DNA of 31,005 nt, taken from NCBI GenBank assembly GCA_048940645.1, contig JBHLOI010000043.1, forward strand, positions 1 to 31,005. Reading direction: 5' to 3'. Within the stretch, counting starts at the first letter, position 1. The number at the start of each line of letters is the position of its first letter. Of the stretch, positions 12,748-30,722 are shown one piece after another. The position numbers and the translations under genes were made by a program. Source of the DNA: Promethearchaeota archaeon. GTDB taxonomy: Archaea; Asgardarchaeota; Lokiarchaeia; Sigyniarchaeales; SOKP01. The notes below the pieces were generated by a model. The model worked only from the letters and a program-made list of their open reading frames with translations. It ran no database searches and had not been told where the DNA came from.

Positions 12748-13698
12748 TTATGCGTTGGATCTTTCCAAGATTAATCTTGCTAGAGCTTCAAATGTTTCTT
12801 CGATATTTTCCCCTGTTTCAACACTGCATTCAATAAAACCATCTAGCCCTCGTGATTTTGCAATTTTGATGCCTTCTTCAGCAGAAATCTGTTGATTATT
12901 AACCATATCCGAGATAATCCCCACAGCCATTATGGGGAATTCGACATCTGGTGTAATCTCGTTTCGAATAATTGTTAACCACTCATCAATACTCCTGATA
13001 GAAGATTCTTTATTCGCATCATAAATAAAAAGACCTCCTTTAGCACCTCGAACGTAAGTTGGAAGTAAAAATTTAAATCTTTCCTTTCCACCAAAATCCC
13101 ATAATTGTAATTTAACTTTCTTACCCCCAACATCTACAGTTTTAACTTCAAAATCGACACCTATCGTCATTTTTGAATCGGATACAAATAGATTTGTCAA
13201 GAATTTCTGAGTTAAATTTGCTCTTGCTACTTCTGGTTCACCAAACAGAACTATCTTAAAGGTAGTATCATACATCTTTCTAGTCTCATCTCTAACTTCT
13301 GGGGAATAACTGGCCGCTATGTATTTTTCTTCATCACCACGATATACAATTGCCGCTACAATCCCAAGCACAGCACTTGAAACCCATAATATCTCACTAA
13401 TTATCCCCAATATCGACACATCAACACAGATCGCAATTAGACTTATCACTAGAGAAATAATTCCATAGTAAGTAAACAAAAACCGCGTTAAGGGATAGTA
13501 AATATAGTAATGATAGTAAACATTTGAAGTTTGAACCGCGAGATAAACACCAAGAATACCTGATATTAACAATATTGAAAACAATATTCTGAGAGGAATA
13601 AGAACATCATTCGTTGGATCTGGGCTTAAAATACACGAAAAAATAATTAATTCAAGACTCAGAGTCCCCAATAAACTTGTTACACTGGAGTGTTTCAT
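12748..13698 (-). CDS. 4-TM membrane module fused to a degenerate Rab-like small GTPase domain
   Basis: N-terminal ~120 aa form hydrophobic helices. The C-terminal part reads FKIVLFG..MTIGVDF..KLQLWDFGGKERF..YVRGA..ECS..TGENIEETF. The P-loop reads GEPEVARA, with no GK[ST]. Confidence 0.88.
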   Translation of the reverse strand: MKHSSVTSLLGTLSLELIIFSCILSPDPTNDVLIPLRILFSILLISGILGVYLAVQTSNVYYHYYIYYPLTRFLFTYYGIISLVISLIAICVDVSILGIISEILWVSSAVLGIVAAIVYRGDEEKYIAASYSPEVRDETRKMYDTTFKIVLFGEPEVARANLTQKFLTNLFVSDSKMTIGVDFEVKTVDVGGKKVKLQLWDFGGKERFKFLLPTYVRGAKGGLFIYDANKESSIRSIDEWLTIIRNEITPDVEFPIMAVGIISDMVNNQQISAEEGIKIAKSRGLDGFIECSVETGENIEETFEALARLILERSNA

Positions 13699-24296: not shown

Positions 24297-26138
24297 TTAT
24301 TTTATTTTTCCAAAAAATTTTTGAACTAAAAAACTTAAGTCTTTCCAATTATCAAGATCAGTAGAACTTTCTTCTATATTATTGATAAGATCTTTATAAT
24401 TTATATCAAATTCTTGAATTAATGCCTTCAATTTTCTTTCAAATATAAATATATTTTCTTTTACAATCAGCACAAAGACGACATCTTTTGTATAATTTAA
24501 ATTAAATATTATTACTCGATCACCATGATCTATTGATCTAATTTGAGTTTCACCCTTAAGAATTGCTTTTAAAATGGTCATTAATCCAATTATTCCCCCA
24601 GAAATTAAAGAAGAATCACTATTTCTTTCCAATTTATTAAAAGTACAATCAAATAAAGGTAACCCAGACTTATAAATTATATAAAGATGGATTAGGTCAT
24701 CTCTCCATTCTTTTAATGGTAAATGAATTTTAAATGTAGAATAATTTTCATTATCTCCTGAGTCTATAAGAATTTGACCATTATGTAAATCCACAATTTG
24801 TTTAGAAAAGGAAAGTTCTTGAAATATATCATTTTCATTATATTGGCATAATTGACCTCTTATCTCTATTTCTCCAAAATCATTCACTTTTTTTAGATTA
24901 ATTAAAATATTTTGATTATTAGTATTCCTTCCTATATAGGAAATTATTTCTTTAATTACCTGTTTAATTCTTATCTTATCTAATTCAGAATATAAATCTT
25001 CAGAAAATTTTCTATTAGTTTTTATCTTCTGTAACTGTACTTTATCATTTACTGAATCAAGTAATTCCATTATTACCTCAACTAAACTTTCAATTTGTTT
25101 GTTTAATATTAATTTATCAGATTCTATTTTAGAAATGTTTACTATTTTTCCAACTAAATCTAATGATTTTTCTCCCTCATTTTTAATCAATTCTAAGAGT
25201 TTTATCGCATCCAAATCTAATTTATCCTTATAAGAATTTAAAAGGATATCAGTAGCGTTTGACAACACATTCAGGGGATTTCTTAATTGTTCTGAAGCTT
25301 TAGTGGTCATACTTTTTTTTATGTTATCGAAATCCTTAAGTCTTTTATTTTCTTCTCTAACGATTCTTTCTGCGAGTATTCTTTCAGTAATATCCTGAAA
25401 CATAACTTGTACAAATTTGCTGTCTCCAATTTCAACATTAGAGAAAAATGCTTCTAACCAAGATTTACTATTATTTTTATTTATAATTTCAAACTCTCTA
25501 ATTTCACTCAAACCAAAATCAAGAACATTTTGAAATATTTCTTCTAAAGAATCCATTTGTTTTTCATTTATTTGTAAAATATCAAATAAATACATATCTT
25601 TTAAACCACTCTTATTTCTATTTAGATATAACTCAGCAGAACTATTACAATCATATATTCGTTTTCTAGAATCCAATAAAATTATTGAATATGGAAAATT
25701 TTCGACCAAATTTCGAAATTTTTCTTCTGATTCTTTTAAAGTAATTTCTTTTTTTTTCCATTCAGATATATCTCTTCCAATTTTAACAATTTGTTCTATA
25801 TCACCTCTCTCATTCTTAATTGGATAGGCTTGTATCTCTAAATGTATTATATTCTCATTAACATAATGGTTGTGAATAGAATTACTGAATTTCCCAGTTT
25901 TTAAAACCTCTTCAACAGGGCATTTATATTCTGGTGATTTGCAAACTTTATTTCTTTCATGAGTTACTTTATAACATTTATTTCCTATGATTTGCTCTCT
26001 ATTAACACTATATTTTAAGCAAAAAGATTTATTCACACCTTTTATTGTAAAATCTTTGTCTAAAATCATTATTTCATCATATATAGAATCTAGAATAGTT
26101 TTAATGAGTTTATTTTCTTGTTCTATATTAAATTCCAT
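24297..26138 (-). CDS. PAS-PAS pseudo-histidine kinase with C-terminal longin-like domain
   Basis: Two PAS domains. H-box SEQLRNPL has no His, and the ATPase domain lacks N/G1/G2 boxes. C-terminal LIHLYIIYKSGLPLF..DSSLISGGIIGL..IRSIDHGD..FVLIVKE. SD AGGTGA precedes ATG 26138. Confidence 0.82.
   Translation of the reverse strand: MEFNIEQENKLIKTILDSIYDEIMILDKDFTIKGVNKSFCLKYSVNREQIIGNKCYKVTHERNKVCKSPEYKCPVEEVLKTGKFSNSIHNHYVNENIIHLEIQAYPIKNERGDIEQIVKIGRDISEWKKKEITLKESEEKFRNLVENFPYSIILLDSRKRIYDCNSSAELYLNRNKSGLKDMYLFDILQINEKQMDSLEEIFQNVLDFGLSEIREFEIINKNNSKSWLEAFFSNVEIGDSKFVQVMFQDITERILAERIVREENKRLKDFDNIKKSMTTKASEQLRNPLNVLSNATDILLNSYKDKLDLDAIKLLELIKNEGEKSLDLVGKIVNISKIESDKLILNKQIESLVEVIMELLDSVNDKVQLQKIKTNRKFSEDLYSELDKIRIKQVIKEIISYIGRNTNNQNILINLKKVNDFGEIEIRGQLCQYNENDIFQELSFSKQIVDLHNGQILIDSGDNENYSTFKIHLPLKEWRDDLIHLYIIYKSGLPLFDCTFNKLERNSDSSLISGGIIGLMTILKAILKGETQIRSIDHGDRVIIFNLNYTKDVVFVLIVKENIFIFERKLKALIQEFDINYKDLINNIEESSTDLDNWKDLSFLVQKFFGKIK
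25767..26078 (-). repeat. duplicated PAS-coding segment, copy A
   Basis: 87/104 aa identical, ungapped, to 27340..27651 (manual count). Confidence 0.9.
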
Positions 26139-26157
26139 GTAAATATCACCTGAAAAA

Positions 26158-27714
26158 TTAAACTGTGACTTTTTTAGCATTATTTTTTGTTCCATCACAT
26201 ATTTCGGGATATAACATTTCAAATAAAATGATAAAATTGCTACCCTTAGTATAATCATCCTTAACTTTATTTTCGACCCAGATTTTCCCATTATAGCTTT
26301 CTATTATCTTTTTTACAAGTGATAATCCTATTCCTAAACTTCTAATTGAATTATTTTTATTTTTATGGCCTCGTTTGAAAGCTATTTCCTTAAATTGATC
26401 TGGAATTCCTCTCCCATTATCAATAAATTCCATTTTAAGATACTCTTTACCATCTTTATGTTCTCTTGATATTTTGATTGATATCTCAATTATAGAATTA
26501 TCATTATGTCTTATAGCATTCAATAAAATATTTTCAAATAAATCAATTAAGAGATTGTTTGCTTTAATGTAAAATGTTTCATTTGGGGGTTCTATTTGTA
26601 TGATAATTTTTTTTCCTTGGAAACTTTTGATAATATATTCAATTGATTGTCTTAAAACGCCATAAACTTCTATTGGTGTAAAATTACTTTTATCATCTTC
26701 AATTTCAGAAAGTGTTCTAACATTTGATATCAAATTCTCGGCTCTTTTAATTTGCTCTTTAGCAATCTCGAACAATTTTTCTACATGTTCACTTTTCGTA
26801 GGTTTTTTTTGATATAATGGTAATAGCTCTATAAATGACAAAAAAAATTGTAAAATATTGTTAATATCATGAGTAAAAATATCCTTATACAAATTAGCTC
26901 GATTATAAGCGCTCCGATATCGTTTTTCTGATTCTTTCAAGATAAGTTCTGCTTTTTTACGTTCAGATACATCCCTTATTATATCAATTACTGCTGGTTG
27001 ACCCTTAAAATTTAGAATAGGTGTGCAACTATATTCAAAATGTTTTTTTTCAGTCTTACTTGAATTAAAATAAATTAATTCATATCTTTTATGTGCATTA
27101 TAATTATCTGATAATTTGTTAAATGAACAATGCTCGCATATCTCTTCATTATTTGTTAAAACTTTATAGCATTCTTTTCCAATTTGGTAACTTCCAAACA
27201 TTTTTTCTGCTTTTTTGTTCATATAAAAAATTTTCAAATCTTTTGAAATAACTACAATTGAATCATTTGTATTTGATAGTATTAAATTCAATTCTTTTTC
27301 AGATTCCTTGATTTCTTGTTCAATTTTCATTCGTTTAGTGATATCCCTTCCAATTTTAACGATTTGTTCTATACTACCTCTCTCATTCTTAATCGGATAG
27401 GCTAATATCTCTAAATATATTATGTCCTCATAAATATGATGATTGTGAATAGAATTACTGAATTTTCCAGTTTTTAAAACCTCTTCAACCGGACATTCAC
27501 ATTCTGGTGATTTACAGACGTTATTTCTCTTATGAGTTACTTTATAACATTTATTTCCTATGATTTGCTCTTTATTAACACCATATTTTAAGCAAACAGT
27601 TTTGTTCACATCTTTTATTGTAAAATCTTTATTTAAGATCATTATTTCATCAGATATGGAATCAAATATTGATCTTAAGTTCTGCTCTTGCTGACTTTTT
27701 TGTTTTTTTCTCAT
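26158..27714 (-). CDS. PAS-PAS sensor histidine kinase
   Basis: Two Cys-containing PAS domains. H-box FTHDINNILQ, N-box ENILLNAIRHN, G1 DNGRGI, G2 LGIGLSLVKKI, and GSNF. Confidence 0.93.
   Translation of the reverse strand: MRKKQKSQQEQNLRSIFDSISDEIMILNKDFTIKDVNKTVCLKYGVNKEQIIGNKCYKVTHKRNNVCKSPECECPVEEVLKTGKFSNSIHNHHIYEDIIYLEILAYPIKNERGSIEQIVKIGRDITKRMKIEQEIKESEKELNLILSNTNDSIVVISKDLKIFYMNKKAEKMFGSYQIGKECYKVLTNNEEICEHCSFNKLSDNYNAHKRYELIYFNSSKTEKKHFEYSCTPILNFKGQPAVIDIIRDVSERKKAELILKESEKRYRSAYNRANLYKDIFTHDINNILQFFLSFIELLPLYQKKPTKSEHVEKLFEIAKEQIKRAENLISNVRTLSEIEDDKSNFTPIEVYGVLRQSIEYIIKSFQGKKIIIQIEPPNETFYIKANNLLIDLFENILLNAIRHNDNSIIEISIKISREHKDGKEYLKMEFIDNGRGIPDQFKEIAFKRGHKNKNNSIRSLGIGLSLVKKIIESYNGKIWVENKVKDDYTKGSNFIILFEMLYPEICDGTKNNAKKVTV
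27340..27651 (-). repeat. duplicated PAS-coding segment, copy B
   Basis: Paralogous to 25767..26078. Confidence 0.9.
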
Positions 27715-27749: not shown

Positions 27750-28667
27750 TTATTTTAATATTTTTTTAAAATCTAGAAATTTTTTTTCATTAAATATTTC
27801 TTTTTCTTTCTGATAAAACTTACAACTCTGCTTTTCCAAGCCAGTCACGTAAATGCATTTCTTAGCACACCAATAGAGACCAGTTGGATTAGGATTGTAA
27901 GCAAATTTACAATCTGAAGAGATAAATTCTTTTTTTCCCTCTCTCCAATTAAAGTAATCAAACATTCTTCGACAGAAAATTTCAGAATTTTCATCAAATG
28001 GATAACTCATTATACAATGTGTTCCAATTTTAGTTTTCCTTAATTTTACAGGAATAAATCCTAATGTGTTAAAGAATTTTAGTTTATATTGCTCACAATT
28101 CGCTACTAATAAAAATAGATAAAATTCATTATAACTCTCAATTTCTTGTTCAATTATAAATTGAAATAATTTTGAGCCTAATCCTCTTCTTCTATAATTC
28201 TTTTTAATCTCGATAGTATCTAAATAATAAAGATATACTCCATTATATATCGATAAAAATATTAAATTCAAACAACCAATTATTTCATTGAATCCATTAA
28301 AAATATAATGAGTCTTACTCATATATCCATAATACCAATCTTCTGAATCCTCACAATTTTCTAATAATTTAGCGGGTAATTCATCTTTTCGATATATTTT
28401 AAATTCATAATCTTTTAACAAAAGATTCCAATAAAGTTTGCTCTTATCTAAAATATTTTTGTAGCGTTCTTTTGAGCAATAGTTAGTTCTTAAATCTATA
28501 GAATAACTATTTAATAAAGCTAATGGATATAATCGATCTTTTTTTTTTTCTACAGTTAATACTGATTTTTTTCGAATATAAGGTATATTAAGCCCTAAAT
28601 AGTCATTTAAAATCTCAAAATTAATAATTTGATTTTTATTTTTCTCTTCATGGGTTTTTAATATCAT
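27750..28667 (-). CDS. GNAT family N-acetyltransferase with C-terminal Cys-rich domain
   Basis: YLDTIEIKKNYRRRGLGSKL (acetyl-CoA motif A) and KFFNTLGF. C-terminal SDCKFA..GLYWCAKKCIYVT..EKQSCKFY. Confidence 0.85.
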   Translation of the reverse strand: MILKTHEEKNKNQIINFEILNDYLGLNIPYIRKKSVLTVEKKKDRLYPLALLNSYSIDLRTNYCSKERYKNILDKSKLYWNLLLKDYEFKIYRKDELPAKLLENCEDSEDWYYGYMSKTHYIFNGFNEIIGCLNLIFLSIYNGVYLYYLDTIEIKKNYRRRGLGSKLFQFIIEQEIESYNEFYLFLLVANCEQYKLKFFNTLGFIPVKLRKTKIGTHCIMSYPFDENSEIFCRRMFDYFNWREGKKEFISSDCKFAYNPNPTGLYWCAKKCIYVTGLEKQSCKFYQKEKEIFNEKKFLDFKKILK

Positions 28668-28799: not shown

Positions 28800-29258
28800 T
28801 TACGATAAATAAACCAATTTACTCTTATTCTCGATATTTTTACTTTTCTCCAGAGTTGAGAAATAATTTGATAATTTAATAATTGTTTGATTTAATTCAA
28901 ATAGAATTATAGCTAAATTCAAATATATTGGAAATATTACTGAAATCATAATTTCATTATTGATTGATTCAAGAATAATCATAAATCCATTATCATCTAG
29001 TTGATTTCCAGCTTGAATCTTAATTTGTTTTACGAAATTGCGATTTTTTATTATATCAAGACCATTTTCAGCTAAAGAAATTACTCCAGCACAGATAGCT
29101 CCTATAGATTGAAAATAATCATCGTCTTCATTGAAATTACCTTGATCTACAGCTATTATAAAACCATCTTCAGTAAATAAGAAAGAGCTCGTAATGTCTG
29201 TATGTTCTCTAAAAGCTTTCAAAATATAACTAATATTCTTTTCTGTTAAATTATACAT
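28800..29258 (-). CDS. roadblock/LC7 (MglB/LAMTOR-like) domain protein
   Basis: ITSSFLFTEDGFIIA, SIGAICAGVISLAE, and LAIILFEL in the C-terminal helix. Overlaps the GTPase stop by 8 nt. Confidence 0.82.
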   Translation of the reverse strand: MYNLTEKNISYILKAFREHTDITSSFLFTEDGFIIAVDQGNFNEDDDYFQSIGAICAGVISLAENGLDIIKNRNFVKQIKIQAGNQLDDNGFMIILESINNEIMISVIFPIYLNLAIILFELNQTIIKLSNYFSTLEKSKNIENKSKLVYLS

Positions 29259-29901
29259 CTAAAACGGACACCTCATCTTTAGATATAATTTTTTCAGAAT
29301 TTCCATTTAAAATAATTTTGAGGACAGCAATAATAGCATCTTTTATTCCAATATTACATTTAGCAGATCCTTTATATACTACTTCACCTACTAGATTTTT
29401 AATCATTTCGATGTCATGGTAATCTTCTCTATCAGATTTATTAGCAATAATTTTCATAGGAATATTATATCCTAAACCTGTTCTTGTTTCCTCTAATATA
29501 ACTAATGCATTTCCAATATTAGCTAAATCACAGCCATCTATTAATAAAATAACACCATCGCTCCCTTTTGCTAATATTTTTCTAACTGAAGCAAATTGCA
29601 TTTGTCCAGGACACCCTTTTAATTCTAAATCCATAATATGCCACCCAGAATATTCGTCCTTATCTCTCAAATATTCAGTTTTGCTCATTATTAAACCGTT
29701 CGTCTCAAAATTTAAATTTGGTCTTGCCCAAATCAATCTTGCTAAATCAAAACCAGTAGTAGTATGGGTTTTATCTTTGTCAAATGGTATATTTAGTTCT
29801 TTTTCCACAGAAATTGCTTTATTATCAAGAGTATGGATTAAAGTTGTTTTACCCGAATTAAAAAATCCAGTTATAAAAATTTTTATTTTATTATTTAACA
29901 T
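29251..29901 (-). CDS. small GTPase, MglA/CvnD-like
   Basis: G1 GFFNSGKTT, G2 TTTGFD, G3 GCPGQ, G4 NKSD and G5 SAK. Confidence 0.9.
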   Translation of the reverse strand: MLNNKIKIFITGFFNSGKTTLIHTLDNKAISVEKELNIPFDKDKTHTTTGFDLARLIWARPNLNFETNGLIMSKTEYLRDKDEYSGWHIMDLELKGCPGQMQFASVRKILAKGSDGVILLIDGCDLANIGNALVILEETRTGLGYNIPMKIIANKSDREDYHDIEMIKNLVGEVVYKGSAKCNIGIKDAIIAVLKIILNGNSEKIISKDEVSVLDV

Positions 29902-30251: not shown

Positions 30252-30722
30252 ATGCCAAATTATAAACAATTGTTAGATATTTCAAATGCAACATTAGTTG
30301 CAATGGGAAAAGCTATGATCAACATGGGTTTAAATATTCCATTAGTTTGGAATGAATGTGCAAATGTGTTTGAAAATAGTGCAAAAAATCTTTTAAAAGA
30401 TGCTGGTATGGTAATTGAAGGTAATGATGTTCAATCGATAACTGAAAATTTTGCTAAGAAGGTAAAAGAAATGGGATTCTGCCAAAGAGCTGATATTCTA
30501 GAACTCAGCGATGAAAAGCTTGTTATGGATCTTGGAGAATGTATCTTTGCTTCGGCTACAACTGTTTTTAGAGGTAATGATCGAAATTTTATACCTCCGT
30601 GTCCATTTATGTCAATGTTATATAGCACAATTGCAGAAAAAACAGGGAAAATCGGCTATATAGAATCTTGTCAATGGAAACCTGAAGAGAATACATCAAT
30701 TTTTACTGTAAAGTTAGAATAA
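30252..30722 (+). CDS. V4R/MetOD-like (Bet3/H-NOX-related fold) protein
   Basis: Helical N-terminal half, then LVMDLGECIF..PPCPFMSML..IESCQW..SIFTVKL cysteine pattern. Confidence 0.65.
   Translation: MPNYKQLLDISNATLVAMGKAMINMGLNIPLVWNECANVFENSAKNLLKDAGMVIEGNDVQSITENFAKKVKEMGFCQRADILELSDEKLVMDLGECIFASATTVFRGNDRNFIPPCPFMSMLYSTIAEKTGKIGYIESCQWKPEENTSIFTVKLE

Follow-up and report, generated by a model that had tools for sequence, protein, structure and literature searches.

Asgard archaea encode many fusions of NPRL2-like longin domains with two-component domains, and two-component systems have been suggested to signal into regulators of eukaryotic type (Liu et al., bioRxiv 10.1101/2020.10.19.343400, Fig. 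5c). Here we describe a gene of this broad kind, found at 24297..26138 on the minus strand of a 31,005 nt stretch of DNA from Promethearchaeota archaeon (GenBank assembly GCA_048940645.1, contig JBHLOI010000043.1, positions 1 to 31,005; the window in the following). Its product combines two PAS domains, a histidine kinase module without catalytic residues and a C-terminal longin domain, and the gene shares an operon with a small GTPase and a roadblock-like protein. Like the fusions of Liu et al., it joins a longin and two-component-type domains in one Asgard polypeptide. As such fusions had been reported there, the combination is already known as a kind, and the bridging of prokaryotic sensors and eukaryote-type regulators, which the first-pass annotation of this DNA had inferred, is not new in its general form. 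The term 'histidine kinase' is absent from the relevant parts of that preprint, so a dead kinase module is not reported in them, and neither a GTPase/roadblock cluster nor a roadblock-longin fusion is described in its passages on longin fusions. The best Pfam match of the present family is Fuz_longin_1, and no NPRL2/NPR2-type family was among the Pfam matches of 14 members. In our literature searches we found no report of an ancestral loss of catalysis in a longin-fused kinase module, of a GTPase/roadblock-like/pseudokinase-longin core or of a roadblock-longin fusion; a search for Asgard, longin and histidine kinase gave no paper, and one for longin, PAS domain, archaea and GTPase gave one unrelated paper.

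In wiring, the nearest described systems are the actinobacterial G protein systems known as conservons (CvnA to CvnD), for which the GTPase, and not a response regulator, has been proposed as output (PMC13343842, PMC4316618). A conservon set consists of the active kinase CvnA, the roadblock protein CvnB, the DUF742-type CvnC and the GTPase CvnD and is found in Actinomycetota, whereas the present locus is of Asgard origin. CvnA8 is an active, autophosphorylating ATPase which is reported to be membrane-anchored and has no longin (PMC13343842), while the kinase-like protein here is dead and longin-bearing. Roadblock-like and GTPase genes are present in our operon, and a CvnC-type family was not seen in the Pfam scan of it, which gave matches to GNAT, PAS and kinase families. 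The locus is not a member of the conservons, and the likeness is an analogy of wiring only.

In the histidine pseudokinases RetS (PDB 6dk7, 7n0e) and DivL, as in our protein, the DHp-CA fold persists; there it serves protein-protein signalling in place of phosphotransfer, as we propose for our protein too. RetS still has the His and works by forming DHp heterodimers with GacS, while in DivL a Tyr takes the place of the His. For neither of the two is a longin output or a linkage to a GTPase known. On the longin side, the locus resembles MglB-MglA, Mon1-Ccz1-Rab7, Fuzzy-Inturned-Rab23, TRAPP-Ypt1 and SRX-SRbeta in its coupling, here genomic, to a small GTPase and roadblock proteins, and the fold is held in common with Fuzzy LD1, sedlin, synbindin and SRX (VIA-align Z 10-12.6), but none of these systems is known to have a fused PAS sensor or kinase-like module. 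In the longin/roadblock platforms MglB, TRAPP and Mon1-Ccz1, it is helix a1 that forms the dimer and faces the GTPase.

Asgard genomes hold dozens of small GTPases along with longin and roadblock proteins, mostly outside shared operons, hence GTPase-regulator pairs are hard to assign (Tran et al., PMC10933270). The locus described here is a conserved, compact and testable set of one GTPase, one roadblock-like protein and one sensor-borne longin, with an active sister kinase as natural control and a roadblock-longin fusion as natural minimal form.

A kinase module without catalytic residues and its longin tail

The fold of the kinase module is retained. HisKA was matched at 30.3 bits, above the Pfam cutoff of 26.9, in the two-helix dimerisation hairpin of the DHp domain (25125..25367, minus strand), and HATPase_c at 16.6 bits, under the cutoff of 26.4; the neighbouring kinase scores 61.2 bits for the latter. 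The AlphaFold2 (AF2) model of residues 257-613, built from a 24-sequence alignment with a mean confidence (predicted local distance difference test, pLDDT) of 77, shows two long DHp helices (residues 258-302 and 309-338) and an alpha/beta CA-like domain (24717..25097, minus strand). In Foldseek the DHp-CA part of the model matched RetS, HK853, ZraS and other kinases with E about 1e-11 to 1e-10 over 208-247 columns.

The catalytic residues, on the other hand, are lost. The H-box remnant SEQLRNPL (25272..25295, minus strand) pairs residue for residue with SHELRTPL of Thermotoga HK853 (2c2a/3dge) in a phmmer alignment (E 2e-7), which places Glu at the position of the phospho-accepting His, His260 of HK853; the exact change is from His to Glu, with the next Glu changed to Gln. 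The CA-like domain has no N, G1, F or G2 boxes and no ATP lid. Relatives were gathered by word-indexed search, exhaustive profile search, contig look-ups and genome searches, and reach down to about 36% identity with the query over the DHp-CA-longin part. All named relatives are from Asgard metagenome-assembled genomes labelled Promethearchaeota/Lokiarchaeota, Thor- or Helarchaeota. Among 41 distinct DHp-CA-longin sequences none has a His at the H-box column (38 have Glu and 3 have Lys), and the N, G1 and G2 box columns hold unrelated residues in every family member examined.

As controls we used intact kinases of the same genome. In the neighbouring kinase P0002, when aligned to the family profile, the respective boxes read NAIRHN, DNGRG and GIGLS. 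Two ordinary kinases (contigs C32 and C75) match the family DHp-CA profile with E 4e-49 and 3e-43; their H box reads SHELKTPL or SHELRTPL, their N box LLSNAIKNT or LLNAIKNT and their G1 box DTGIG, and relative to the profile they have an insertion of 23-24 residues (the ATP lid) followed by GTGLGL, all of which are without counterpart in the pseudokinase. As these canonical paralogs match the family profile, the longin-fused module descends from a canonical Asgard kinase type; the His, the ligands of Mg/ATP and the lid have since disappeared from it. The survey supports the view that the module is catalytically dead and that the dead state is ancestral to the family, and ATP is probably not bound. 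Since the histidine kinase fold is kept while His, boxes and lid are gone, we regard the module as a homologue of the sensor histidine kinases and not as a working member. The first-pass annotation had read the altered H-box, the missing N, DxGxG and GxGL boxes and a dead scaffold from the window alone, and this reading stands after translation of the H-box stretch, the HK853 alignment, the comparison with intact kinases and the survey of fused relatives.

The C-terminal 139 amino acids (aa; 24300..24716, minus strand) are, according to the structural models, a longin domain. AF2 modelled this tail from a 14-sequence alignment with a pLDDT of 82 and a predicted template modelling score of 0.80, and the element order in the AF2 models as assigned by DSSP, b1 b2 a1 b3 b4 b5 a2 a3, is that of longins. 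The best Foldseek matches were MON1A, AP sigma and mu, SR-alpha SRX, TRAPP subunits, zeta-COP, Sec22b, Fuzzy and BLOC-3, with E over the best matches from 5e-4 to 7e-3. In VIA-align all 50 entries listed are longin domains (Z 9.9-12.6, root mean square deviation 2.6-3.4 A, 104-128 residues), including AP-1 sigma3 (Z 12.6, 113 residues, 2.9 A), Fuzzy LD1 (12.4), Sec22b (11.7), sedlin (11.6) and SRX (11.4). The longin-like domain of about 135 aa that had been suspected at the end of the protein was thus found again by the fold searches.

We also considered the tail as a roadblock domain and rejected this, as the roadblock order a-b-b-a-b-b-b has a helix before b1 whereas the AF2 models have a helical turn of 4 residues only. 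The sole recognised roadblock chain in the Foldseek list was dynein 7k58_F at rank 48, and Robl_LC7 was absent among the Pfam families matched by the tail in the 14 family members scanned. In the same scan Fuz_longin_1 was weakly matched in 9 of the 14 (best E 5.8e-4) and Sybindin once, while the tail of the window itself had no Pfam match. No meaningful match came from a profile search of the PDB that used the longin alignment (best E 0.35), and a feature search of the ESM Atlas gave sub-threshold leads only (0.84-0.88).

The tail is the best-conserved part of the protein, with a mean column identity of 72% versus 56% for the whole, and its invariant residues cluster in helix a1 and the b3-b4 hairpin. 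The linker between the last CA strand and b1 of the longin has about 7 residues including an invariant Trp, as seen in the longer AF2 model and the alignment, so that the CA and longin domains are tightly joined.

Linkage to a small GTPase and a roadblock-like protein

The operon of the window runs on the minus strand in the order GTPase, roadblock-like protein, GNAT, active PAS kinase and pseudokinase-longin. Its first gene (29251..29901) encodes a small Ras-superfamily GTPase of 216 aa (TIGR00231, E 3.4e-8; weak Pfam matches to Arf, Ras and GTP_EFTU; weak PDB matches to Sar1, MglA and Rab21), which has over 130 Asgard homologs at E <= 1e-10. The second gene (28800..29258), overlapping the first by 8 nt, encodes a roadblock-like protein of 152 aa (Robl_LC7, E 8.5e-4, below cutoff).

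The same order of GTPase, roadblock-like protein, variable genes and pseudokinase-longin was observed in seven distinct cassettes: that of the window, one on contig C36 of the same genome, L001 and L009 (both from one other assembly), L002 (whose protein is also in L003), L010 and L016 (from a genome of the same genus). L005 was left out of the count as it is nearly or fully identical to the C36 cassette (GTPase 100%, pseudokinase part 99%). The roadblock-like protein is kept in every cassette, and the pairwise identities of the three core proteins group the cassettes alike. Between the core genes lie a GNAT, a HEAT-GNAT, a TFIIB, an uncharacterised protein of about 200-225 aa, an active kinase, or none; in L016 no further open reading frame (ORF) of at least 100 aa separates the three. 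The C36 cassette (L008 4823-8337, minus strand) consists of GTPase, roadblock-like protein, TFIIB and a pseudokinase-longin of 509 aa, its GTPase being 69% and its roadblock-like protein 43% identical to those of the window; TFIIB here takes the place of the GNAT and the active kinase. Kinase P0002 has a counterpart in both L001 and L009 but none in L002, L016 or the C36 cassette, hence this kinase is an optional member.

A further connection was found in G155, a genome of the same taxonomic family, where a gene of 288 aa overlaps the end of the GTPase orthologue (L017 1885-2751, minus strand, G155:C160). Residues 1-136 of its product correspond to the roadblock-like orthologue (38% identity, E 1e-26) and residues 150-285 to the longin described here (43% identity, E 2e-32); PAS and kinase parts are missing. 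The representative of cluster P0050 is built alike. By Rosetta-stone reasoning this fusion suggests that, next to the GTPase, the roadblock-like protein and the longin work as partners, and on the same reasoning the longin would belong with the GTPase module and the PAS-pseudokinase part would be an exchangeable input. P0056, composed of PAS plus longin and lacking the kinase module, shows by its domain order a longin apparently serving as sensor output. A pull-down with the GTPase at 29251..29901 had been named as a check in the first-pass annotation, and on the genomic level a tie of the longin to this GTPase gains support from the synteny in seven cassettes and from the fusion in G155.

The GTPase itself has GCPGQ in place of the DxxGQ of small GTPases, with no Asp in G3, and the core K-G-x-P-G is invariant in 34 homologs. 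The GCPGQ motif is reminiscent of the G3 motifs of the MglA type. One GTPase orthologue (G152:C154:715-1332) contains two in-frame TGA codons, perhaps as a pseudogene or through a sequencing artefact. In G155, a gene of 294 aa (L018 1760-2644, plus strand, G155:C139), located a few kb from a second GTPase cassette, holds the C-terminal part of the dead CA and the longin only; this may be a truncated or decaying copy.

Proposed mechanism and competing explanations

With a probability of roughly 0.55, we favour the explanation that the protein is a fossil-kinase PAS sensor whose longin output works on the co-operonic GTPase together with the roadblock-like protein. The protein would be a cytoplasmic and probably dimeric PAS sensor, dimerising via the retained DHp as kinases do, and its transmitter a fossil histidine kinase in which the DHp hairpin and the shape of the ATPase domain are kept, with neither ATP binding nor His phosphorylation. 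The longin would take over from phosphotransfer as output. Input at the PAS domains would shift the DHp/CA arrangement, which in turn would set the position of two rigidly attached longins, and these might pair with the roadblock-like protein or with each other to form a platform that contacts the co-operonic small GTPase and affects its nucleotide cycle as an exchange factor, a cofactor of a GTPase-activating protein (GAP) or a nucleotide-state-specific tether. A complex prediction with two longin copies and the GTPase (alignments as input) scored 0.20 where the mark was 0.32, which speaks neither for nor against binding.

Further, we speculate that the PAS-pseudokinase-longin and the roadblock-like protein make up a signal-controlled exchange-factor or GAP platform of the co-operonic GTPase, operating without phosphotransfer; we put this forward tentatively and at less than even odds. 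If true, a prokaryotic-type sensor would drive a eukaryote-type longin/roadblock-GTPase switch, and the locus would in its logic be an archaeal precursor of longin complexes coupled to sensors, examples being GATOR1, FLCN-FNIP and Mon1-Ccz1. A GTPase and its regulator would also become a defined pair in Asgard archaea, for which prediction has been hard (PMC10933270). If the link to the GTPase holds, two-component-type sensing would have been rewired to GTPase switching, the kinase scaffold being kept and its chemistry discarded.

To judge this explanation the spread of the longin has to be considered. The profile search with the tail, made on clusters at 50% identity, gave 708 of these at E <= 1e-3, and 169 remain at E <= 1e-10; 150 were listed. 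The longin lies at or near the C-terminus in nearly all of these 150 proteins and the dead-kinase module is found in 16 of them, while 24 of 149 representatives are shorter than 200 aa, i.e. have little beyond the longin domain. The subfamily is present in 95 of the 151 genomes searched in the phylum and in 61 of the 72 of high quality, and the present genome has five copies.

Several observations weigh against a dedicated link between the sensor-borne longin and the GTPase. By a crude hydropathy count, at least 3 transmembrane segments are predicted in 97 of 149 representatives, and the Pfam scan gave an MFS_1 match in 27 of 109 representatives of the longin subfamily. Three other copies in this genome do not adjoin GTPase or roadblock genes (contigs C15 and C69 examined). 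A subgroup of pseudokinase-longins of 504 aa (P0020) stands outside the GTPase/roadblock clusters. The module is also patchy: in the taxonomic family, 8 of the 31 genomes searched have a GTPase orthologue and only 2 of them a full-length match to the pseudokinase-longin.

The likeness to RetS and DivL brings up another explanation, namely that the protein is a decoy or modulator of two-component partners, its His-less DHp forming heterodimers with a real kinase or docking a receiver. The partner could be the adjacent P0002, whose PAS1 is about 80% identical to that of the pseudokinase, or the PAS kinase situated at the cluster's far end; in relatives the cluster has, besides this flanking kinase, a DHp(His)-REC protein without an ATPase domain. 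The longin would then serve for localisation or oligomerisation only. The DHp-CA part does have RetS among its best matches in sequence and structure, but the score of RetS is barely above those of ordinary kinases, and in L002, L016 and the C36 cassette the pseudokinase-longin is kept with no real kinase adjacent to it. As this explanation moreover leaves the best-conserved part, the longin, and its fusion to the roadblock-like protein unexplained, we find it unlikely, although it is compatible with the favoured one.

The breadth of the subfamily would suit a longin that is a generic C-terminal module, used for dimerisation, for the assembly of membrane proteins or for binding of a shared small ligand, with the synteny reflecting co-regulation only. 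Most of its carriers are transporters or membrane proteins of other kinds, all its architectures retain the SGG and IDHGD motifs, and other copies in this genome lack GTPase neighbours. A generic module would not account for the roadblock-longin fusion directly downstream of the GTPase orthologue, nor for a three-gene core maintained in seven cassettes despite varying genes in between, and we hold this explanation to be unlikely as well. That the protein has remained enzymatically active, as a kinase or phosphatase of atypical type with another acceptor or nucleotide site, is hardly credible, for although the DHp retains L-[KR]-x-P-L and often has Asn, Thr or Ser at the HisKA phosphatase-motif position, and the His of the longin motif IDHGD is invariant in the 17- and 14-sequence family alignments, every member is without the ATP-contacting motifs and the lid and HATPase_c remains below the Pfam threshold.

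Gene layout, neighbouring genes and further observations

The pseudokinase-longin gene encodes 613 aa plus stop, in the order PAS-PAS-DHp(His to Glu)-degenerate CA-longin, and the same length is given in public gene calls for an identical protein (P0006). The longest ORF is 24297..26291 (664 aa) and would overlap the upstream gene; we use the start at 26138, as in the public calls. The ATG at 26138 has GGTGA 8 nt before it, and the stop of the upstream gene lies 19 nt before it. The G+C content of the region is about 25%.

Both PAS domains are on the minus strand, the Cys/His-rich PAS1 at 25761..26093 (Pfam PAS_9, E 2.9e-18; PAS_4, E 9.7e-15) and PAS2 at 25389..25724 (PAS, E 1.8e-9; PAS_8, E 6.9e-6). 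The likeness of PAS1 to that of the neighbouring active kinase (26158-27714) was found by BLASTP. The two copies of PAS1 have in common the Cys/His-rich motif CYKVTH followed by further Cys, and the remaining parts of the two proteins are far more diverged. This suggests a recent domain exchange and a common input, possibly metal or redox.

The neighbouring active kinase P0002 (26158..27714, minus strand) has two PAS domains and is a histidine kinase whose His and whose N, G1 and G2 boxes are intact (HATPase_c, E 1.5e-16), and the gene before it (27750..28667, minus strand) encodes a GNAT acetyltransferase-domain protein (Pfam Acetyltransf_1, E 3.8e-7). On the plus strand a divergent gene of 156 aa (30252..30722; no Pfam match) heads the opposite arm, and genes of 153-186 aa stand at the same position in L001, L002, L009, L010, L016, L017 and L018. 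In relatives the divergent arm comprises this 153-186-aa protein, a microprotein of 41-64 aa, Robl_LC7, a second roadblock-like protein, an uncharacterised protein of about 460-530 aa, the DHp(His)-REC protein and a PAS kinase; the window shows only the first gene of the arm because the contig ends at 31005. The DHp(His)-REC protein of about 280-290 aa (L002 1425-2285, minus strand; also in L001, L009 and L010) joins a HisKA-type DHp, in which the His is kept within SHDLKEPL, to a receiver domain and has no ATPase domain, an unusual build for phosphotransfer.

A GTPase upstream of the 504-aa P0020 subgroup was considered as well and dropped, as the gene context shows none. On contig C15 of this genome (L012 5214-7641) and in P0042-P0181 the longin is, as in Asgard genomes generally, mostly at the C-terminus of MFS-type or other polytopic membrane proteins; no description of transporter-longin fusions was found in the literature searched. 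Contig C69 carries a gene for a 134-aa protein with a weak Pfam Profilin match (L013 2305-2709, plus strand; E 1e-4, below cutoff), which is one gene, a deacetylase, away from a 746-aa protein with a longin tail. Elsewhere in the window (12748-13698, minus strand), a protein of 316 aa combines an N-terminal extension with a C-terminal half that strongly matches the Ras family of Pfam (E 2e-36).

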